A DNA stretch of 64,000 bases from the NCBI RefSeq assembly GCF_050920415.1, contig NZ_CP169309.1, one strand, 5' to 3'. Below are positions 5,957-59,555 of the stretch, one piece after another. A program made the translations under genes and the position numbers. The DNA is from Escherichia coli (GTDB taxonomy: Bacteria > Pseudomonadota > Gammaproteobacteria > Enterobacterales > Enterobacteriaceae). Below the pieces are notes generated by a model. That model did not search any database. It was not told the DNA's origin and was given only the letters and a program-made list of their open reading frames with translations. Within the stretch, counting starts at the first letter, position 1; every line of letters begins with the position of its first letter.

Positions 5957-8034
<2,078 letters not shown>

Positions 8035-9102: not shown

Positions 9103-11473
<2,371 letters not shown>

Positions 11474-24957: not shown

Positions 24958-27208
24958 ATGATGCGTCGTGTAAATATTTTTTGCTCATTTGCTCTACTTT
25001 TTGCCAGCCATAATAGCCTGGCGGTAACTTATCCATTACCTCCAGAGGGTAGCCGTTTAGTGGGACAGTCGCTTACTGTAACTGTTCCTGATCACAATAC
25101 CCAGCCGCTGGAGACTTTTGCCGCACAATACGGGCAAGGGTTAAGTAACATGCTGGAAGCGAATCCGGGGGCTGATGTCTTCTTACCGAAGTCTGGCTCG
25201 CAACTCACCATTCCGCAGCAACTGATTTTGCCCGCCACTGTTCGTAAAGGGATTGTGATTAACGTCGCTGAGATGCGTCTTTATTACTACCCGCCAGACA
25301 GTAATACTGTGGAAGTCTTTCCTATTGGTATCGGCCAGGCTGGGCGAGAAACCCCGCGTAACTGGGTGACTACCGTTGAACGTAAACAAGAAGCACCAAC
25401 CTGGACGCCAACGCCGAACACCCGGCGCGAATATGCGAAACGAGGGGAGAGTTTGCCCGCATTTGTTCCTGCGGGGCCTGATAATCCCATGGGGCTGTAC
25501 GCGATTTATATTGGCAGGCTATATGCCATCCACGGTACCAATGCCAATTTTGGTATTGGGCTCCGGGTAAGTCAGGGCTGTATTCGTCTGCGCAATGACG
25601 ATATCAAATATCTGTTTGATAATGTTCCTGTAGGTACTCGTGAACCGCCCCGGAAATCCTGGAGACTAAACTTCCTGAGAAAGAGGTAAACAGGATGACT
25701 AAAAATACTCGTTTTTCCCCCGAAGTCCGTCAACGCGCAGTTCGTATGGTTCTGGAAAGTCAGGGCGAATATGACTCACAATGGGCGGCAATTTGTTCCA
25801 TTGCTCCAAAGATTGGCTGTACGCCAGAGACTCTGCGTGTCTGGGTTCGCCAGCATGAGAGGGATACCGGGAGCGGTGATGGTGGGCTCACCACCGCTGA
25901 ACGTCAGCGTCTGAAAGAGCTGGAACGTGAAAATCGTGAACTGCGCCGCAGTAACGATATCCTTCGCCAGGCTTCCGCTTATTTTGCGAAGGCGGAGTTC
26001 GACCGCCTCTGGAAAAAATAATGCCACTGCTGGATAAGCTGCGTGAGCAGTACGGGGTCGGACCGGTATGCAGTGAACTGCATATTGCCCCGTCAACGTA
26101 TTACCATTGTCAGCAGCAGCGGCATCATCCTGATAAACGCAGTGCCCGTGCGCAGCGCGATGACTGGCTGAAGAGAGAGATACAGCGCGTATACGATGAA
26201 AATCATCAGGTGTACGGTGTGCGTAAAGTCTGGCGTCAGTTGTTACGGGAAGGAATCAGGGTGGCCAGATGTACAGTGGCGCGCCTCATGGCGGTTATGG
26301 GACTTGCCGGTGTTCTCCGGGGTAAAAAGGTCCGCACTACCGTCAGCCGGAAAACCGTTGCCACAGGTGACCGCGTAAACCGTCAGTTCGTGGCAGAACG
26401 TCCTGACCAGCTGTGGGTGGCTGATTTTACTTACGTCAGCACATGGCAGGGCTTCGTCTATGTGGCGTTCATCATTGATGTGTTTGCCGGATACATCGTG
26501 GGGTGGCGGGTCTCATCGTCTATGGAAACGACATTCGTGCTGGATGCGCTGGAGCAGGCGTTGTGGGCCCGTCGTCCGTCTGGCACCATCCATCACAGCG
26601 ATAAAGGCTCTCAGTATGTGTCACTGGCCTATACGGAGCGACTAAAAGAAGCAAAACTGCTGGCATCAACAGGGAGTACAGGCGACTCGTATGACAACGC
26701 GATGGCTGAGAGCATCAATGGTCTTTACAAAGCGGAGGTAATACACCGTAAGAGCTGGAAAAACCGTGCAGAAGTGGAACTGGCCACACTCACGTGGGTG
26801 GACTGGTATAACAATCGACGATTGCTGGGAAGGCTGGGCCATACTCCTCCGGCAGAAGCAGAAAAAGCTTATTATGCTTCCATCGGAAACAATGATCTGG
26901 CAGCCTGAGTTCACAGATAAAACACTCTCCAGGAAACCCGGGGCGGTTCAACTCGTGTACAAATTATTGATCAGCCAGTGAAATACACAACGGAACCGGA
27001 TGGATCAAAGTGGCTGGAAGTTCATGAGCCACTGTCGCGCAACCGTGCGGAATATGAGTCAGACCGAAAAGTGCCTTTGCCAGTAACGCCATCTTTGCGG
27101 ACGTTCATTAACGGGCAAGAAGTTGATGTGAATCGCGCAAATGCTGCATTGCAGCGCCGATCAGGAATGCCTGTGCAAATTAGTTCTGGTTCAAGACAGA
27201 TGTTTTAA
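24958..27208 (+). pseudogene. ldtA: L,D-transpeptidase LdtA (ErfK) interrupted by an IS element; 5' part 24958..25640, 3' part 26951..27208
   Basis: N-terminal ORF ends ...DNVPVGTR at the IS boundary; the reading frame resumes exactly after the IS as TRVQIIDQPVKYTTEPDGS...SGSRQMF. Confidence 0.9.
25641..26950 (+). mobile_element. IS3-family insertion sequence, IS629/IS1203-like, 1310 bp, with orfA 25695..26021 and orfB 26021..26908
   Basis: Terminal inverted repeats TGAACCGCCCCGG...CCGGGGCGGTTCA; orfA (108 aa, HTH) and orfB (295 aa, DDE transposase) overlap at an A-rich slippery region; flanked by direct repeat ACTCG. Confidence 0.92.
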
Positions 27209-46107: not shown

Positions 46108-46129
46108 AGAATTTGGCTCCTCTGACTGG
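46108..46129. repeat. 21-bp direct repeat of the 3' end of tRNA-Asn (distal att site of the islet)
   Basis: gaatttggctcctctgactgg is identical to 54382..54402 (3' end of asnT plus 5 bp). Confidence 0.85.
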
Positions 46130-46462: not shown

Positions 46463-47341
46463 TTACGGTAAATAATGCGTGACAATCTGCAGGAACTCAT
46501 CCCGCATCTGGTTGTCGATTTTCGGATTCCATGCCACACCAATGTTCCATATGATCTGCTTTCCCCACAGAGTAATCAGCTTGACTCCTACAGGTAAAAA
46601 ATTCTCGACGCTGGCGGGTAGCAGCGCGAGACCATTCCCTCCGGCTATCAATGCTAGCAGGGAATGAATATCATTCGTCGCAGAGATTGGCTCAATGATG
46701 AGTTCATTATCCCGCAGGAACGCAGTCGTTTGCTCCGCCAGACAAGGGCTGACCGCTGGATCCATGCATAAAATCGGATAGATTGCCAGCGTACGCTGGA
46801 GATCGGTGGGATCAATATCGACGGCTACCGGGACAGCCAACACCAGATTTTCTTTATTTATTAAGCGAGAGGCCAATAATTCTGTTACCGGCATACGAAC
46901 AAAACCAGCATGCAGTTCACCTTCCATCAACATCCTAGCTTGTACGCTGGAGGCAATTTGGCTGATAACAACGTCGCAGTCGGGAAATTTCTGGCGAAAA
47001 GTGTTAATCCAAACTGGTGTGCTTTTAAACGAAGATATACCAAATCCGAGCACCAGTTTACCCGTACTCCCCTTTTGGATTTCTCTGGCGTAGGTTAAAA
47101 AATCGTGGTGGGATTTCAGCAACTCATAAGCTTTAGCAAACAACTGCCTGCCAACCATCGTCAACACTGCCCCGTGGCGACCACGCAGGAAAAGCTGCCC
47201 TCCGGTCTTCTGTTCGAGCATCTTGATCTGCTTTGAAAGCGCAGGTTGTGTCAGAAATAAAGCTTCTGCAGCTTTATTGTAGTTTCCCTTTTCCGCCAGT
47301 GTCACAAATGCACGCAGCAGCCTTATATCTATTCCTGACAT
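46463..47341 (-). CDS. LysR-family transcriptional regulator (islet-encoded, divergent from the operon)
   Basis: 292 aa, N-terminal HTH IRLLRAFVTLAEKGNYNKAAEALFLTQPALSKQIKMLE. Confidence 0.85.
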   Translation of the reverse strand: MSGIDIRLLRAFVTLAEKGNYNKAAEALFLTQPALSKQIKMLEQKTGGQLFLRGRHGAVLTMVGRQLFAKAYELLKSHHDFLTYAREIQKGSTGKLVLGFGISSFKSTPVWINTFRQKFPDCDVVISQIASSVQARMLMEGELHAGFVRMPVTELLASRLINKENLVLAVPVAVDIDPTDLQRTLAIYPILCMDPAVSPCLAEQTTAFLRDNELIIEPISATNDIHSLLALIAGGNGLALLPASVENFLPVGVKLITLWGKQIIWNIGVAWNPKIDNQMRDEFLQIVTHYLP

Positions 47342-47567
47342 TTATTGAATCCTGAAAAATTGGAATTATACAAATACTCGCAACAGATGACATGATGCGT
47401 AAAATGATTTACGCCGAGATCCCCTTGGTTTGTCAAACTCAGAAACGCCATACCTGCTGCTCTTGGTTCTATTTAACACTCACTAATGCGCAGGTTATTT
47501 ATAAAAATTGACCTCATAAATCATTCAAAAACATTAATTATATAAATACAATAAGGATTAAATATTT
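47342..47567. promoter_or_regulatory. Divergent promoter/operator region between the LysR gene and the isochorismatase-hypEF operon
   Basis: 226-bp AT-rich intergenic region between divergent starts; classic LysR arrangement; no specific site mapped. Confidence 0.5.
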
Positions 47568-48167
47568 ATGCCAAATATTGCCGTTCTCACTAATGACCTG
47601 CAGTATGAGTTTACCTACAAAATAACACGCTCTCCAGAAATTCTGGCGCAAAAACTCGTCCAGTTTAATCAGTTTCTCGATGGCATTCGCGCTCTGGATC
47701 AATCCATTATCCACCTGCAACTTATCAACGATCCTAATGACCCGGCGGTACAAAAGCGCTATCGCAACCGCGAAGCGGGCATTCCTGCACTAGCTGGTCG
47801 CCCGGAAAACCAGATTATCGATAAAGTATACCGCCCCACAGATCTGGTTGTAGTCAAGGGCAGAGACAGCGGTTTTTTTAATAACGATCTCGACGAAATC
47901 CTCCAGCAACTCGGGGTAAAAACCGTAATCGTTACCGGGTTGCAAACTCATGTTTGCGTGCAGACCACTGCAGCGGATGCCTTCTTTCGCGGCTATAACG
48001 TCTGGGTACCGGGCGACTGCGTGTTCGCTCCTTCGTCCGAAGATACAGAGCGTGCACTCGAGTGGCTTGCCAGCTATTGCGCAACTGTAGCACCTTCTGC
48101 GGAAATTTTATCAATATTGCAAAAACAGAACGATCTGCCTGAGCGCGGCGAAAGGGAAGCATCATGA
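47568..48167 (+). CDS. Isochorismatase-family cysteine hydrolase
   Basis: 199 aa; ...VTGLQTHVCVQTTAADAF... matches the catalytic Cys region of the isochorismatase/CSHase/nicotinamidase family. Confidence 0.75.
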   Translation: MPNIAVLTNDLQYEFTYKITRSPEILAQKLVQFNQFLDGIRALDQSIIHLQLINDPNDPAVQKRYRNREAGIPALAGRPENQIIDKVYRPTDLVVVKGRDSGFFNNDLDEILQQLGVKTVIVTGLQTHVCVQTTAADAFFRGYNVWVPGDCVFAPSSEDTERALEWLASYCATVAPSAEILSILQKQNDLPERGEREAS

Positions 48168-49195
48168 GCTTAACCCAGACGCTAAATCATGAAGAGGTCG
48201 TTGTACTGGATCATGGCACCGGGGCGAAATTAAGCCGCGAGTTGGTTGAAAAAATTGCTAGCATTCTCGGTGACACCTATCTGGGCGTGATGGAAGATAG
48301 CGCGGTGCTGGGGTTATCCACCAGGCGAATTGCCTTCACCACCGACTCCTTTGTTGCCACGCCGCTGATTTTCGGCAACGGTGATATTGGCAAAATCGCC
48401 GTATGCGGCACCGTTAACGATCTCGCTGTCAGTGGGGCTCGTCCCCTTTACATCACACTCAGTCTTATTATTGAGGAAGGTATGCCGATGGCTGATCTGG
48501 TCAGAATCATCGAGTCCGTACGTGAAACGGCTCGTGAGGCAGAGGTCAAGATTGTCGCTGGTGATACCAAGGTCGTAGGTAAAGGTGAAGCAGATCGGCT
48601 GTTTATCAATACTGCTGGCATCGGCGTGTTTGAACATCCGCCAGTCTCAGTTAAGAACGTGCGTCCGGGGCAGAAAATAATCCTGAGCGGATATATCGGC
48701 AATCACTCGATTCACCTGCTGTCGATGCGGGAAGGATTGGGGTTCGAGCGAAATATTCTTAGTGATTGCGCACCGCTGAACCACATTATTGACAAACTTA
48801 TCAGCAACATCCCTGAAGGCAAAATAGCGTCAATGCGAGACGTTACGCGCGGTGGGCTGTCCGCTGTTTTACACGAACATGCGCGCGCAACAAATTATCA
48901 GATTCATTTCGACCAGCCATCTTTGCCCATACAGCCGGAAACCGCCATGGCAGCTAATATGCTGGGTGTTGACGTCATTAATCTCGCTAATGAAGGTTGT
49001 TTGTGCCTGTTTGTTGAACCTGAGTATGCTCAGAAGGTACTACATTTGCTGCAGGAGCATCCTGTCGGCAAGCACGCGACAATTATCGGCGAGATCACCG
49101 CTGTCTCGGGTACTGAAGTCTATATGATTGAAGCTGATGGAACACACACAGAAGTCGAGGAATTATATGGCGCAGAATTACCCAGACTCTGTTGA
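48164..49195 (+). CDS. HypE-like protein (PurM superfamily; carbamoyl dehydratase / thiocyanate-forming type) with C-terminal Cys
   Basis: 343 aa; ...DTKVV.KG.ADRLFINTAG.G... and C-terminus ...ELPRLC resembling HypE PRIC; ATGA overlap with upstream gene. Confidence 0.8.
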   Translation: MSLTQTLNHEEVVVLDHGTGAKLSRELVEKIASILGDTYLGVMEDSAVLGLSTRRIAFTTDSFVATPLIFGNGDIGKIAVCGTVNDLAVSGARPLYITLSLIIEEGMPMADLVRIIESVRETAREAEVKIVAGDTKVVGKGEADRLFINTAGIGVFEHPPVSVKNVRPGQKIILSGYIGNHSIHLLSMREGLGFERNILSDCAPLNHIIDKLISNIPEGKIASMRDVTRGGLSAVLHEHARATNYQIHFDQPSLPIQPETAMAANMLGVDVINLANEGCLCLFVEPEYAQKVLHLLQEHPVGKHATIIGEITAVSGTEVYMIEADGTHTEVEELYGAELPRLC

Positions 49196-51545
49196 GCTTC
49201 ACGAGACGCCGGAAACCCGGCGTTACCGCATCTGTGGGGTCGTTCAGGGCGTTGGATTTCGTCCCTTTGTTCACCGACTGGCCCGCACCTATGGTGCCAC
49301 CGGCTGGGTGTTAAACGATTCAGAAGGCGTGTTGCTTGAGCTGCAGGCATCCGGCACGGTTATTGCCAGAATCATGGACAAACTGGTGACCGAGGCACCA
49401 CCACTGGCAAAAATCATCAGTACGCAGGAAGTTAGCCCAACGGATACCAGAGCGCACTATGAAACGTTCAGCATCCGTAAAAGCCGCGATCATACCAGCA
49501 TGGACACGATTATCCCGCCAGATACCAACGTCTGCAGCGATTGCCTGCGCGAGATAAGCGATCCTGATAATCATCGTTATCGTTACGCTTTCACCAATTG
49601 CACCAATTGTGGGCCGCGCTATTCCATTATTCTTGGTATGCCTTACGATCGTGCCCAGAGCACTATGCGTAAATTCCCTTTATGTCCAACCTGTGAGCGT
49701 GAATACAACGATATTGAGGATCGACGCTATCATGCCCAGCCCAATGCCTGCCCAGTTTGCGGCCCACAGTTGCAACTTACCGATCGACAGGGCACATCCG
49801 TTCACACAGATGATATTGTCAAATTTGCCATTACGAAACTAAAAGAAGGCGGAATTCTTGCAATAAAGAGCCTTGGTGGCTTTCATCTCGTGGCCGATGC
49901 TTGCAATGAGAATGCTGTCAATGAACTTCGGCAACGCAAGCGAAGAGACGCCAAACCTTTTGCAGTGATGGTCGCGGATGTGGAAAGCGCGTCGCGTATT
50001 GCTTTCATCCCCCCCTGTAATCACAAATTGCTGGAAAGCCCGCAGCGTCCCATTGTCTTGTTGTATAAGCGCAACGTCCTGCTGGCGAGTACCGTTGCGC
50101 CACATAATCCGAACATCGGTGTAATGCTGCCTTCAACGCCGCTTCAGCATTTATTGCTGGAAGACCCGTCTCTGCCGATCCTGATTATGACCAGCGGTAA
50201 TATTTCCGGTCATCCGATCGTCTTTGACAACGACATGGCAATTAAGCAACTCGGGAAAATCGCGGATTACTTCATTCTGAATAATCGCGATATTCATACG
50301 CGTGTTGACGATTCGGTGGTCCGCACGGTGTTTCTCAACGACGCCATTACCTCGCAGCTATCGTTTTTGCGCCGCTCCCGCGGTTACGCGCCATACCCTA
50401 TTCATCTACCTTACGCAGTGGATTCCGTTATCGCGCTCGGGGCGGAGCTAAAAAACACGATCAGCATCGGCAAAGGAAAACAGGTTTTTCTGAGCCAGCA
50501 TATTGGCGATCTTAAGAATAACGTGACTTTTAAATCACATATCGAATGTATTGATCATCTTCAAAACCTGCTGAACGTGAAGGCAAATGTCGTGGCCTGC
50601 GATTTGCATCCCTCTTTCCGCTCTACCCGGCATGCGCTGGAGAATTTAGAGCATCAGGTTGTTCAGGTTCAACACCATCACGCGCATATGGCATCCTGCA
50701 TGGCGGAAAATGGCCTGTCAGGTACTACTCTAGGCGTAATTTTTGACGGTACAGGATATGGCACCGACGGCACCATTTGGGGCGGTGAGTTTCTCGTTGG
50801 TGATTTCGAAAAATTCGAGCGTGCAGGATGCTTGCGTTCAATGACCCTGCCCGGAGGCGATCGGGCAGTTAAAGAGCCGCTGCGCGTCGGCATCTCCTTA
50901 CTGGTGGAAACCTTCGGCGAAGATATCAGTACGCTCGCAGTACCAGGCTTGCAGGCGCTCCAGCCTCAGCAGCGCGATATATTCAGTAAAATGGCGACCA
51001 GAAAAATCAACACCACCACGACCAGCAGCATGGGCAGACTATTTGACGGCATCGCCGCGCTGATGGGCGTTTGCACTCAGGTGGAGTACGAAGCCCAGGC
51101 GGCCATTGAACTGGAAGCGCTGCTGCAGTGTAAACTTCATATGACGGCTCCGTTCAGCTACATCATTGCCGATGTCGAGAATAAGCTCGAGGTGGATTAT
51201 CGCCCGATGATAAGGGAACTGGTGCAATGCTTCAGCCAGCCCGGTTTTGATATGGCCGAACTAAGTCGGCGCTTTCACTCTACCATCGTCGACATGATTT
51301 GCGAGGTCTGTAAACGTCTGGTGGCACGCTCAGGCACGCAACAAATTGTCCTGAGCGGCGGCGTGTTCTGCAATGAATTCATCCTCGTTAATTCTCTTAA
51401 CAGTCTGGAGTCTTGTGGATTCCGGCCTTACAGCCATCAGTTAGTTCCGACTAACGATGGTGGTATTTCATTGGGGCAAGTGGTTATTGCTACCGCATAC
51501 ACTCGCGCAACGCGCAATAAAAATCTGGAGAGAGAAAATGCATAG
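49167..51545 (+). CDS. HypF-like carbamoyltransferase (acylphosphatase, two CxxC-N18-CxxC Zn fingers, YrdC-like and Kae1-like domains)
   Basis: ORF 49128..51545; start at ATG 49167 with GAGG RBS; VQGVGFRPFV acylphosphatase motif; CSDC...CTNCGPR and CPTC...CPVCGP fingers; HHHAH in the C-terminal domain. Confidence 0.82.
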   Translation: MAQNYPDSVELHETPETRRYRICGVVQGVGFRPFVHRLARTYGATGWVLNDSEGVLLELQASGTVIARIMDKLVTEAPPLAKIISTQEVSPTDTRAHYETFSIRKSRDHTSMDTIIPPDTNVCSDCLREISDPDNHRYRYAFTNCTNCGPRYSIILGMPYDRAQSTMRKFPLCPTCEREYNDIEDRRYHAQPNACPVCGPQLQLTDRQGTSVHTDDIVKFAITKLKEGGILAIKSLGGFHLVADACNENAVNELRQRKRRDAKPFAVMVADVESASRIAFIPPCNHKLLESPQRPIVLLYKRNVLLASTVAPHNPNIGVMLPSTPLQHLLLEDPSLPILIMTSGNISGHPIVFDNDMAIKQLGKIADYFILNNRDIHTRVDDSVVRTVFLNDAITSQLSFLRRSRGYAPYPIHLPYAVDSVIALGAELKNTISIGKGKQVFLSQHIGDLKNNVTFKSHIECIDHLQNLLNVKANVVACDLHPSFRSTRHALENLEHQVVQVQHHHAHMASCMAENGLSGTTLGVIFDGTGYGTDGTIWGGEFLVGDFEKFERAGCLRSMTLPGGDRAVKEPLRVGISLLVETFGEDISTLAVPGLQALQPQQRDIFSKMATRKINTTTTSSMGRLFDGIAALMGVCTQVEYEAQAAIELEALLQCKLHMTAPFSYIIADVENKLEVDYRPMIRELVQCFSQPGFDMAELSRRFHSTIVDMICEVCKRLVARSGTQQIVLSGGVFCNEFILVNSLNSLESCGFRPYSHQLVPTNDGGISLGQVVIATAYTRATRNKNLERENA

Positions 51546-52278
51546 TTCTGCGAACCGTATTGCCGCTGTTTTATTCGATATGGATGGTGTCCTTATTGAT
51601 TCCAATGCGGTGATTGAGCGCGGCTGGGCTGAAGGCGCACAGATGTTTGGCAAGACGCTAACGGAAGAGGATATCGTCAGGCATATTCACGGACAGCCCG
51701 GCCCGCATACCATTCGCGCCCTGTTCAGCGACCTTTCCCTGGAAGATCAAAAGAAGGTCCAGTCACATATCATCCACGTTGAAAATACCGCTGATTACGA
51801 CCCGATCCCTGGAGTTAGCGAACTTATCCAGGCGTTGCATAAGGCTGGCATCAGTGTGGGGATTGTCACTAGCGGCTGGCGGTCGAAAATCGATCGTATT
51901 ATGGAGATGCTGCAAATCACGCCCTGTATTTCAGTGATTGTCGAACGTGATGATGTCGTGCGCGGCAAGCCTTATCCCGATCCTTATCTGCTTGCCGCAG
52001 AGCGGTTTCATCTTGCACCGTCCAGAACACTGGTCTTTGAGGATTCAAGAAGCGGCGTAACATCTGCTGTTACAGCAGGCGCAATTTGTGTTGGCATCGG
52101 TACAGACAGTCTGAAAGAGTGCGGTGCCGTGCTTGCAATTACAGATTTTCGTAATGTGAAAATCACCTCACAGACAGGCGAAAAAGTAGTGATTGCCTTT
52201 ACTCCAGAGCACCAGATGGAGATGGAAACTCAGAGCTCTCGTAAGAAAACATCCTGTACCACAAGAGAAGAGTGCTAA
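51538..52278 (+). CDS. HAD-superfamily hydrolase (subfamily IA, phosphatase/beta-phosphoglucomutase-like)
   Basis: ORF 51457..52278; start at MHSSANRIAAVLFDMDGVLIDS (DxDG motif), overlapping the hypF-like stop. Confidence 0.75.
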   Translation: MHSSANRIAAVLFDMDGVLIDSNAVIERGWAEGAQMFGKTLTEEDIVRHIHGQPGPHTIRALFSDLSLEDQKKVQSHIIHVENTADYDPIPGVSELIQALHKAGISVGIVTSGWRSKIDRIMEMLQITPCISVIVERDDVVRGKPYPDPYLLAAERFHLAPSRTLVFEDSRSGVTSAVTAGAICVGIGTDSLKECGAVLAITDFRNVKITSQTGEKVVIAFTPEHQMEMETQSSRKKTSCTTREEC

Positions 52279-53471
52279 TGAATATCACACAGAAGGGACG
52301 CTGGGCTGTCACTATGCTATTTTTTATCAATGGCTTCGTCACCGGAGGTTGGGCTGTGCAAATTGCACAGCTTGTACCACGCTTTGGCGTGACCGACAAA
52401 GTGATCGGCCATTTAATTCTGATCTTCGGATTCGGTGCACTAACCATGATGCCCATATCAGGCATTCTGATGGAAAAGATGGGGACACAAATCGTAACGC
52501 GTATTTTTGCCCTTGCAGCCTCCCTGGCATTAATTCCGGTTGGTTTAGCCACCACCCCATTAGTGTTGATGCCAGCGTTATTTGTTCTTGGTGCGATGAT
52601 TGGTGCCATGAATGTAGCGATGAACTCGAATGCCGTGGCGGTGGAGAGATCACTCTCACAAGCGATTTTATCCTCCTGCCATTGCTTCTGGAGTATCGGC
52701 CTATTTGCGGCGGGCTCGATAGGCGGCCATCTTGTTGAACAATTTGGCTTTTTGACGCATATCTTTTTGATTAGTGCCGTGGCCTTAATACTGACGCTGA
52801 TTATCGCTCCGGCCATTTTTAAAGACATACAGACGGTTAAATCCACCAGCAGACAGACCACCCGGTTGCCTCGTTCTCCGGCGATTTATCTGATTGGATT
52901 GATGGCTTTTCTGGCCATGATCCCTGAATGCGCTGTTGTTGACTGGTCGTCACGCTATTTGATTAAAAATCTCAATGCAAAAACAGAAATCGCCAGCCTT
53001 GCCTTCGCCTGCTTTGCTGTAGCAATGGCCTTGTTTCGCTTTATGGGTGACGTGATCCGCAACCGCTTCGGCGCAATATTAATTATACGAATCTCCAGCT
53101 TACTGGCAGGCGCTAGCCTATTGTTGAGCGCACTGGCACACAATCCCTGGCAGGCGATCTGCGCATTTACCTTAGCGGGAATCGGCATCGCCAACCTTGT
53201 GCCCATTGTCTTTTCCGCAGCGGGAAATCAGCCCAATATTTCCACCAACACAGGAATGAGCATTGCCACAACCATTGGGTATTTAGGCACGCTAATGGCC
53301 CCTGCGCCTATTGGCTATATTGCGGAAATAACCGGTTTTCCAGTGGTTTATTGCGGACTAGCTTTCATGTCGGGAATTATCTTTTTGCTGGCACCACTGG
53401 TTCGGGGGGCAGAAATCTCTGTACAGCGGCAGCGAGCCTCAAACAAACACCAGAATACCGGAGCGTTGTAA
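52272..53471 (+). CDS. MFS transporter
   Basis: 399 aa, about 12 predicted TM segments; start overlaps the HAD stop (GTG 52272 or ATG 52278). Confidence 0.75.
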   Translation: MLMNITQKGRWAVTMLFFINGFVTGGWAVQIAQLVPRFGVTDKVIGHLILIFGFGALTMMPISGILMEKMGTQIVTRIFALAASLALIPVGLATTPLVLMPALFVLGAMIGAMNVAMNSNAVAVERSLSQAILSSCHCFWSIGLFAAGSIGGHLVEQFGFLTHIFLISAVALILTLIIAPAIFKDIQTVKSTSRQTTRLPRSPAIYLIGLMAFLAMIPECAVVDWSSRYLIKNLNAKTEIASLAFACFAVAMALFRFMGDVIRNRFGAILIIRISSLLAGASLLLSALAHNPWQAICAFTLAGIGIANLVPIVFSAAGNQPNISTNTGMSIATTIGYLGTLMAPAPIGYIAEITGFPVVYCGLAFMSGIIFLLAPLVRGAEISVQRQRASNKHQNTGAL

Positions 53472-54027
53472 TTTCTGCCTGGCAAATACTGTGAAACGCT
53501 GACGCAAATTTTACTTTCCTGCGTATTGTCATCACAGGCCGTACAGACAGTGCGCGGTCTGTTGGCGGATCTGCCTGGTATTTTGCCGATGAACTGAGGG
53601 CGTCCTGCGGGATACGTATCGCCAGGGGCGTGAAACTAATTGATGAGGTGGCGGCATGATGCCGGCGGACTAGCATATCTGCCTTTCGCCGCCTGACATG
53701 TCCTTTGGGGCCGCTGTCAGTTCAGAGTAAAGGAGAAAAAGATCGATACCGAGGGGGGGCACGACGCCCCGGAGACACCCCTGTTTCGTCAGACAGTCTG
53801 TACCGCGTACAGCCTGAAACTCCCTAAACCTCAACAAACTGCCACTTCGACGTGAAGGTATCGTTCTGGCGCAGCCAAAAAGCACATGCCGGAGACTGTT
53901 TTTTTGGTTGTAGAGGGTAGTCATGAGCAAATTAAGTAGTGAAATGAAGGCCCTGACGAAGAAAGCAGGCGGCAGCTTCAAAACGGTAAATGACCGTATC
54001 CATATTACAAAACGGTTCAGTGAGCAT

Positions 54028-54225
54028 TTACGCGAACTGAACATCCAGATCCGGCGGGTATGCGCCAAGACTGACTCTGGATTCTTTTCCGTTGAAACGA
54101 TATTTGAGATACCAGATGCGTGAACCGCCCGGATTGACGAGCAGATACAGACCGTGAGAGTCGGAGAGTTTTACCGGACGGGAAGAGGTTTTTAACTTGC
54201 GGATTTTAGAATCGTTTAAAGACAT
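54028..54225 (-). pseudogene. P4-type tyrosine integrase, N-terminal remnant only
   Basis: MSLNDSKIRKLKTSSRPVKLSDSHGLYLLVNPGGSRIWYLKYRFNGKESRVSLGAYP matches the N-terminal arm-binding region of tRNA-associated island integrases, then terminates prematurely. Confidence 0.65.
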
Positions 54226-54386
54226 TTGGGGGTCACTCCAGAATCGAACCAAACTGACCCCAGATCTGACCACCAAATTATCCCGATGCGGAGAGAAAAC
54301 CAGATACGCACCGGGGAGGATTTTCACGCTAACTTACTGAACCGTAAACAAATAGAGATGTACAGATAAGCATGAAAACTTGAATT

Positions 54387-54462
54387 TGGCTCCTCTGACT
54401 GGACTCGAACCAGTGACATACGGATTAACAGTCCGCCGTTCTACCGACTGAACTACAGAGGA
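54387..54462 (-). tRNA. asnT: tRNA-Asn (GUU)
   Basis: 76 nt, identical tRNA-Asn sequence; sits between mtfA and the islet/yeeJ. Confidence 0.93.
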
Positions 54463-54562
54463 ATCGTGTGAACAGGGCGCATGTTACTTAGCGGTACCTT
54501 GTCTGTCAACACTAAATTTCATAAGTCATTTCAATTGGTTAATTAATCTGCAAAGTTGTTAA

Positions 54563-55360
54563 TTAATGAACATTCGTCGCCGAAAACGAGTCTGTATCAT
54601 TAGCGTGATGCAGTCTCTGCAAAGGATCTTGTTGATAAAATTGGCAGAAACGTTGCCACAATGAAGGGAAACGAGGAGCAAAAAGCTCAGGGGCGCTAAA
54701 GAAATATTCAGAAAGTACGGCAAAACACTCAGCAGGATCACTGGCAGCATAAGCATCGATGCTCGCCGCATTCTCACCGACTAATTCGATCTCTTCCTGA
54801 ATGTTGTTCATTGCGGCATGAAGATCGTGTTCCCAGCCAGCAACCTCACGCAACGGAATAAAGGGAACTCCGCTGGCGCGATCGCCGTTACGGGTGTCCA
54901 GCTTATGAGCGACTTCATGAATAATCAGGTTAAAACCAGAAGCATCAAACGAATCTTGTATATCCAACCAGTTCAAAACGATTGGCCCTTGCTGCCAGCT
55001 CTGACCTGACTGAACAATACGTTGGTTATGCACTAAACCGATATCGTCTTCCCACTCATCATCGACTACAAATGGCGCAGGGTAAATTAAGACTTCATGA
55101 AAACCATCCAGCCATTCTAGCCCTAACTCCAGAACGGGCAGGCAAAATAGAAGGGCTATCCGGCAGCTTCTTAATGAATCCAGCTCAAAGCCCTGTAAGG
55201 GAACAAGCCGTTTTTGCTGTAAAAAACGTTCGGCAAGAGTGACTAATTTGCTTTGTTCCTGTTCTGTCAGGCACGTTAAAAGGGGAATCGATAGTGCTTC
55301 CTGCCAGGGAAGGGCAGTTTGATGTGCTGATTCTTGTACTTTCCAGGGCCACTTAATCAT
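54563..55360 (-). CDS. mtfA: Mlc titration factor A (zinc-dependent peptidase-like)
   Basis: ORF 54563..55399; start at [14 protein letters not shown], 265 aa; HEVAH motif. Confidence 0.9.
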
Positions 55361-57652: not shown

Positions 57653-57844
57653 AACAGTTTCCTCCAGAGTTATTGTACATGACGTGTTATGTTATATTGT
57701 AACATATGACGAAATGCAATAACTCTTAGGAAACAAGAGCATAGTTTTCTCAGGTGTATTTACCTATCTTATTGAAATGAAATAAATTATGTCGATGATT
57801 TGAGGTTGATGACAAACGAAACATAACTTGATGCGATCTGTGTG

Positions 57845-57878
57845 GGCCGGATAAGGCGCTCACACCGCATCCGGCAGG
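57845..57878. repeat. REP element
   Basis: gggccggataaggcgctcacaccgcatccggcag. Confidence 0.6.
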
Positions 57879-57908
57879 GATAACGCGTACTTTGTCGGCA
57901 ATATGAAG

Positions 57909-58544
57909 TTATAGAGATGATTTGTTGTGAACCTGCTTGCGTAATCGGTTGAAAAGGGAAAGTAGCTTTTTATACCGTAAGGCTAAAAGCAGTACAGCCA
58001 GCCCAGCGTAGATGAGTGGCTGCGGTGAAATAATCTTCACTGACCACAGATAATGTATTGGAGCCAGGATCGCGACAAGATAGACGAAGTTATGCAACTG
58101 TTGCCAGTGTTTGCCGAGTTTTCGCTGCATCGCCTGGGTTGAAGTGAACGCTAAAGCAAGCAAAATTACCCAACTAATAATACCTAACGTTAAATAAGGT
58201 CGGGTGATTAACTCCTTGCCTAATAACGCCAGATTATTCACGCCCAGCTCCAGTAATGCGTAACTGGTTAAATGCAGTGTCGCCCAGGCAAAGCACCATA
58301 AGCCTAACAGGCGTCGAGTCCGCATCAATAACGGCTGTTTTGCGTAACGTGCCAGAGGTGTAATTAACAAGGTCGCCAGCAAAAATTTCAGTGCAGTGCG
58401 TCCGGTAAAATGCTGAATATCTTTCACCGGATCGGCTCCTAGTCCACCGTGATTGATCGCCCAGGCAAGCCAGAGCAACGGCAACAATCCGGCAAGATGC
58501 AGGCAAAGTTTTAGCCATGTCACCTGTTTTGCTGTCAGACGCAT
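57909..58544 (-). CDS. msrQ: Methionine sulfoxide reductase heme-binding membrane subunit
   Basis: 211 aa, [26 protein letters not shown]. Confidence 0.92.

Positions 58545-59555
<1,011 letters not shown>

Follow-up and report, generated by a model that had tools for sequence, protein, structure and literature searches.

Degenerate, or "anchored," tRNA-linked genomic islands carry a tRNA target, flanking direct repeats, cargo, and recombinase genes that have been destroyed by deletion. An integrase of apparently the same general kind as the one at this locus adjoins the HPI and pks islands, which lie at asnT and asnW (see the island list of PMC7545054); compared with these, the island analyzed here is a small, 8.3-kb metabolic islet. 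A review of asnT islands in Escherichia coli names HPI and mentions neither hypF nor mtfA; the 8.3-kb islet is therefore not described there. At the level of single genes, the closest described counterparts are WP_033810924.1, a tyrosine-recombinase-like protein of E. coli FDAARGOS_1337 (L003) that we call int2, and WP_033810926.1, a P4-type integrase encoded beside an asn tRNA gene. The open reading frame (ORF) under study shares with the int2 gene its start codon, upstream region, and ribosome-binding site (RBS), and 43 of the 46 N-terminal residues are identical, but of the 294 codons it keeps only 46, which cover half of the N-terminal domain and nothing of the catalytic one, and it adds 20 unrelated codons. 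A minus-strand stub in the canonical position next to tRNA-Asn corresponds to the first 57 codons of the P4-type integrase, which is truncated in our window (the whole 64,000-nucleotide stretch of DNA analyzed) after 57 of 420 codons. The locus has the same parts as other anchored islands and differs from the usual ones in that a single deletion appears to have truncated two convergent recombinase genes, leaving two overlapping antisense stubs. It is a typical decayed tRNA-linked genomic island, the product of ordinary decay, in which both stubs had already been annotated.

The surroundings of the islet, with yeeJ on one side and tRNA-Asn, mtfA, and tRNA-Ser on the other, are those of the E. 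coli asnT locus. The islet spans 8.3 kb between two 21-bp direct repeats and has the stubs at its right end (Table 1). It shows several characteristics of tRNA islands: insertion at a tRNA 3' end, a direct repeat of that end bounding the far side, presence in some strains but not in others, and occurrence of the same cargo at more than one tRNA site. Its GC profile (44 to 52%) is not distinguishable from that of the flanks. The window includes each of the four tRNA-Asn genes known from the 44-min region of E. coli (27264-27339, 29671-29746, 31495-31570, and 54387-54462), and asnT is the only one of these occupied by an islet; the 17-mer of the tRNA 3' end has exactly five occurrences, namely, the four tRNA-Asn genes and the left repeat of the islet.

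Cargo coordinates were taken from the PGAP (RefSeq) annotation of an identical genome. The cargo (46463-53471) was found in 16 of 5426 complete E. coli genomes, at asnT in 14 and at asnV in 2. Both of the latter (e.g., Z1323HEC0462, L002) have the cargo of the window at 99.5% identity at a tRNA-Asn gene beside nac, followed by a full, though pseudogenised, recombinase module. The cargo once travelled with a complete module. The cluster, with its divergent LysR gene followed by the hydrolase through MFS genes, lies far from any hydrogenase genes. It looks like an operon for small-molecule modification or biosynthesis plus export. If the region has any content of potential interest, it is this rare HypE/HypF-like cluster and not the 66-codon ORF. 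The HTH gene of the module has been lost, as has every complete recombinase gene; because no complete recombinase gene is left in it, the islet presumably can no longer excise or move by means of its own genes. A related integrase supplied in trans could still move it by acting on the intact 21-bp repeats.

Table 1. Features of the asnT islet and its right end (window coordinates)
Feature	Position	Strand	Basis or remark
Left 21-bp direct repeat GAATTTGGCTCCTCTGACTGG, copy of the tRNA-Asn 3' end plus 5 nt; left islet boundary	46109-46129		Perfect 17-mer match (0.06 expected by chance), extended by site comparison
LysR regulator, cargo	46463-47341	-	PGAP
Cysteine hydrolase, cargo	47568-48167	+	PGAP
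HypE-like (AIR-synthase-related), cargo	48164-49195	+	PGAP
HypF-like carbamoyltransferase, cargo	49167-51545	+	PGAP
HAD hydrolase, cargo	51538-52278	+	PGAP
MFS transporter, cargo	52278-53471	+	PGAP; Pfam MFS_1
Junction of the 731-bp deletion	53683/53684		731 bp missing relative to L002 6184-6914
Native int2 upstream region, including GAGGG at 53913-53917	53684-53922	+	Collinear with the region upstream of full-length int2 in L003 and L002, 92-93% identity
66-codon ORF	53923-54123	+	ATG start, TGA stop
First 46 codons of int2; the part of the ORF with true homology	53923-54060	+	Pfam PF12834; PGAP pseudogene; alignment to full-length genes
Junction of the ~3-kb deletion	54051-54059		Single repeat copy, CCGGCGGGT in the window and CCAGCGGGT in relatives (one A-to-G change)
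P4-type integrase stub, N-terminal 57 codons	54055-54225	-	PF13356 Arm-DNA-bind_3, E = 5.4e-13, profile positions 1-52 of 83; PGAP pseudogene; alignment to the 420-aa L003 integrase
ORF tail, codons 47-66 plus TGA	54061-54123	+	Read-through on the antisense strand of the P4-type integrase stub; no int2 homology
Right 21-bp direct repeat, overlapping the tRNA-Asn 3' end	54382-54402		Perfect copy of the left repeat
tRNA-Asn (GTT), asnT position, islet integration site	54387-54462	-	ARAGORN
mtfA, adjoining asnT	54563-55360	-	PGAP

The first-pass annotation had described the 66-aa ORF as unannotatable, with a good RBS and overlapping an integrase remnant on the opposite strand, and had proposed a small regulatory or phage-derived protein, or chance. 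ORF calling and translation reproduced the frame and the quoted translation, the RBS is a Shine-Dalgarno sequence, GAGGG, 5 nt before the ATG, and the opposite strand of the 3' third of the ORF (54055-54123) is indeed a P4-type integrase remnant, matching PF13356. In contrast, the ORF proved readily annotatable. Its residues 1 to 47 matched positions 1 to 47 of the 91-position Pfam profile PF12834 (Phage_int_SAM_2) with an E value of 3.8e-18 and a score of 66 bits (Pfam cutoff, 22), which is far above chance, and they share 93% identity with the N-terminal ends of full-length genes from other E. coli strains. An NCBIfam scan with the 66-aa sequence returned no family. What the earlier reading missed is that the ORF is itself the remnant of a second, convergent integrase-family gene; "phage-derived" holds loosely.

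Public annotation agrees with this assignment. In a genome with 100% identity, E. coli MFDS1022581 (NZ_CP169399.1), PGAP marks both stubs as pseudogenes: 53923-54060 on the plus strand is a [quoted passage not shown] and 54055-54225 on the minus strand is an "Arm DNA-binding domain-containing protein; incomplete." The 66-codon ORF is an already known pseudogene in public annotation and not a new small gene. Nevertheless, the exact 66-aa sequence occurs on 350 contigs in public protein collections under the label "hypothetical protein," and some pipelines call the int2 stub a gene.

A pure chance frame with no coding history would explain some features of the ORF. Translation in six frames yields 180 ORFs of 66 aa or more in the window, so that the length of this one is not above chance, and a 132-aa minus-strand ORF (53670-54068) that overlaps it and spans both deletion junctions is itself a chance frame, with no Pfam match and no PGAP annotation. 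The last 20 codons of the 66 are likewise accidental. For codons 1 to 46, however, chance is refuted by the Pfam match and by the finding that the same start codon opens a 294-aa gene, at 90 to 93% nucleotide identity, in approximately 400 E. coli genomes; for the ORF as a whole, we regard an origin by chance as practically negligible. The translations of the window and of intact int2 are common up to ...NIQIQRV and diverge exactly at codon 46/47, where int2 continues with EQIKVRHIE... and the window with CAKTDSGFF..., the full tail before the stop being CAKTDSGFFSVETIFEIPDA.

Descent from the PF12834 and PF12835 recombinase family is indicated by this homology, by the 92 to 93% nucleotide identity that extends through the upstream region, by the same position in the module, and by the PGAP call. 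The RBS and ATG of the ORF are inherited from the int2 gene. The ORF product is not a functional member of the family, as it covers only 47 of the 91 N-terminal profile positions and has no PF12835 or PF00589 catalytic domain. Similarly, the opposite-strand stub, with positions 1 to 52 of the 83-position Arm-DNA-bind_3 profile only, falls short of being a P4-type integrase.

The intact form of the module is seen in E. coli FDAARGOS_1337 (L003), which has a different island at the same asnT-mtfA position. The right end of that island consists, in order, of a hypothetical gene, an HTH gene, a small hypothetical gene (minus strand), a gene for a 294-aa "integrase domain-containing protein" (plus strand), a spacer of approximately 1.4 kb that is unannotated, a gene for a 420-aa "tyrosine-type recombinase/integrase" (minus strand), and tRNA-Asn. 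The 294-aa protein is int2, which is opened in intact relatives by the start codon of the 66-codon ORF. Int2 matched PF12834 (E = 1.5e-41), PF12835 (Integrase_1; E = 3.5e-61), and, weakly, PF00589; its catalytic-domain region (PF12835) comprises residues 102 to 250, and it aligns over residues 10 to 252 with the XerC model. Judged by eye, it appears to retain the GLRSQE, HSLRY, and LGH...Y motifs of the tyrosine-recombinase kind. A PDB sequence search with the intact 294-aa homologue gave no meaningful match, the hit to uS4 at an E value of 0.23 being due to chance. The 420-aa P4-type integrase has Arm-DNA-bind_3, Phage_int_M, and Phage_integrase domains, and an HTH_35 domain was found in the HTH gene of the module. 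In intact relatives, the two recombinase genes are convergent, about 1.4 kb apart, beside tRNA-Asn. At other asn tRNA genes (L008-L010), Rhs-type islands terminate in the same module, which is often interrupted there by frameshifts or internal stops.

A 9-mer, CTGGCGCAG, occurs six times in the intact module (L003 2607, 3235, 3623, 3860, 4199, and 4234), upstream of int2, within int2, and in the 1.4-kb spacer. The only copy surviving in the window lies at 53866-53874, upstream of the 66-codon ORF. These copies could be candidate binding sites for a recombinase or an accessory protein.

Comparison by BLAST of the window with L003 and L002 located the breakpoints. Two window segments align collinearly: 53684-54059 with L003 2425-2800 (92.9% identity) and L002 6915-7290, and 54047-54600 with L003 6001-6553 (97.8%) and L002 from position 10198 onward. 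Where these alignments overlap lies a 9-bp direct repeat, CCAGCGGGT, which is present twice in each relative: in L003, in int2 at 2792 and in the P4-type integrase gene at 6004, 3212 bp apart, and in L002, at 7282 and 10201, 2919 bp apart. The approximately 3 kb between the copies (approximately 3.2 kb relative to L003) is missing from the window, reducing both recombinases to N-terminal stubs; the deleted DNA (L003 2801-6012) contained the int2 catalytic domain. The minus-strand stub follows the intact integrase through 57 residues (...VSLGAYP) before it ends with 8 read-through codons on the antisense strand of int2 (PDLDVQFA and a stop). Slippage or illegitimate recombination typically leaves one copy of a short direct repeat at the junction, and we infer that the ~3-kb deletion arose by such a microhomology-mediated mechanism. 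The other deletion, of 731 bp, took the HTH_35 (winged-helix) gene and most of the small minus-strand hypothetical ORF; on the left, it broke 3 bp before the start codon of the HTH gene.

An assembly artefact, with both integrase genes in reality intact, would produce the same appearance. We found nothing in support of it, and it is refuted by the continuity of the junction in 14 complete genomes that were assembled independently, come from a range of hosts and countries, and show two sequence variants, leaving it a vanishingly small probability.

Taken as a whole, these observations make it very probable that the ORF is a chimeric pseudogene remnant left by the decay of a genomic island, and the homology, breakpoints, repeats, and distribution on which this explanation is built are matters of direct observation. 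No finding speaks directly against it. In the sequence of events that we propose, an 8.3-kb islet integrated at the tRNA-Asn gene asnT would once have ended with the HTH_35 gene, int2 (294 aa), the spacer of approximately 1.4 kb, the convergent 420-aa P4-type integrase gene, and tRNA-Asn. A deletion of approximately 3 kb between the two CCAGCGGGT copies, one in each recombinase gene, would have removed both catalytic domains and, in the same step, fused the two N-terminal stubs tail to tail, and a second deletion, of 731 bp, would have removed the HTH_35 gene. The int2 stub would have kept its own start codon and Shine-Dalgarno sequence. Since the int2 start was kept and is now followed by the antisense strand of the P4-type integrase stub, the frame runs through 46 native and 20 accidental codons to the first stop.

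The distribution of the junction was determined by megablast with window 53500-54500 as the query against 5426 complete E. coli genomes. The whole query was covered in one piece in 14 of these, five at 99.9% identity or more and nine at approximately 97.4%. The junction was found only together with this cargo at asnT, in these 14 genomes, and no other island type has it. Approximately 400 genomes among the 5426 have the upstream region and N-terminus of int2 at 90 to 93% identity, and in almost all cases these belong to a long gene. Conservation of the reading frame, the check that the first-pass annotation had proposed, thus gives a divided answer: codons 1 to 46 are conserved across hundreds of genomes, where they open a gene of 294 codons, whereas the complete 66-codon frame is confined to the 14 complete genomes that carry the deletion. 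Among divergent homologous regions, then, the whole frame and its stop are not conserved, as they would be in a microprotein gene.

The carriers fall into two lineages, and a step in divergence between them falls exactly at the junction. In the 367 bp to the left, there are no substitutions between the lineages, and the cargo is 99.3% identical, whereas in the 352 bp to the right (54051-54402, comprising the P4-type integrase stub and the integrase-tRNA spacer), there are 17 differences, or approximately 5% (window versus L005/L006). The right arm of the window type is 98.2% identical to sampled full-length alleles; that of the other lineage has approximately 10 changes private to it and is 96.3% identical to the closest full-length allele. 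We favor a single deletion followed by conversion of the right arm, as far as the edge of homology, from a P4-type integrase allele of paralogous or foreign origin. This explanation is favored by the 731-bp deletion that the lineages also share and by the absence of the junction from any other island type. A recurrent deletion that used the same 9-bp repeat twice could also place a step at this point, but it is not favored, as the intact module offers 40 to 64 alternative direct-repeat pairs of at least 9 bp.

Relatives of the ORF product were sought with HMMER among 1.84 billion representative proteins, which gave 42 matches. Family homologues among them align to approximately residues 1 to 50, and none reaches the stop; a few matches extending to residues 57 to 60 are multi-stretch matches to unrelated long proteins of 290 to 1343 aa. 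A word-indexed protein search returned 9 short fragments and no full-length relatives, and we relied on the exhaustive HMMER search and on genome BLAST. Public protein sets hold many short N-terminal fragments of the recombinase family of int2. The other short relatives (P0016-P0024) follow the family sequence to different points and then run into unrelated tails; one of them (L011 108-407) overlaps, in its contig, a convergent LysR gene. They are therefore independent truncations at other breakpoints rather than a conserved short form. Island decay evidently often reduces the int2-family gene to a stub, from which spurious "hypothetical proteins" repeatedly arise.

Neither a sigma-70-like promoter nor an intrinsic terminator turned up in a simple scan of 53450-54400, a result that favors neither the presence nor the absence of independent transcription. 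The MFS gene, which shares the strand of the ORF, ends at 53471, with no terminator-like site between them, and read-through transcription from the cargo operon combined with translation from the inherited RBS could well allow the peptide to be made. On this basis, the 66-aa product might be thought a functional small protein, a DNA-binding or interfering fragment of the recombinase N-terminal domain, kept because it modulates related integrases encoded on other asn-tRNA islands or because it regulates the cargo operon. The ORF still has its native Shine-Dalgarno sequence and ATG, the frame is open in all carriers examined (the window, L001, L005, L006, and L007, the five deletion-bearing sequences compared), the cargo operon lies on the same strand with no predicted terminator in between, and the exact protein has been called on the 350 contigs mentioned above. 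However, several observations weigh against it. The product has 47 of 91 N-terminal domain positions and no catalytic domain, and its tail has no family homologue anywhere in the 1.84 billion representatives. The short relatives stop at different points, and the scan revealed no sigma-70-like promoter. Shared descent of a single recent junction accounts for the frame being open in 14 genomes, and the only two differences between the two carrier lineages within the ORF, Q44R (in the repeat) and A48T (in the tail), both change the amino acid. Two substitutions are too few to tell relaxed from purifying selection. We consider a functional small protein very improbable; half of a helical N-terminal domain with a random tail is unlikely to function, and a chimeric remnant of island decay is the explanation that we retain.

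A more specific conjecture is that the stub is expressed by read-through from the cargo operon and that the half-domain peptide interferes in trans with PF12834/PF12835 recombinases, or with the DNA sites, of incoming asn-tRNA islands. We give this even less credence than the general proposal of a functional product. If it were true, the decay of an island would have made a small immunity or anti-mobility factor.

The biological weight of the finding is small, the locus being a textbook case of a tRNA-linked islet losing its recombinases. For annotation, it illustrates that a good RBS and an open frame can be wholly inherited from a destroyed gene. Mapping of the deletions also fixes the exact limits of the islet. 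Elsewhere in the window, an L,D-transpeptidase gene beside the first tRNA-Asn gene is split by a frameshifted IS3-family element (24960-27208), and a copy of IS2 lies between zinT and msrQ (approximately 57742-58970); both insertions are ordinary IS activity.
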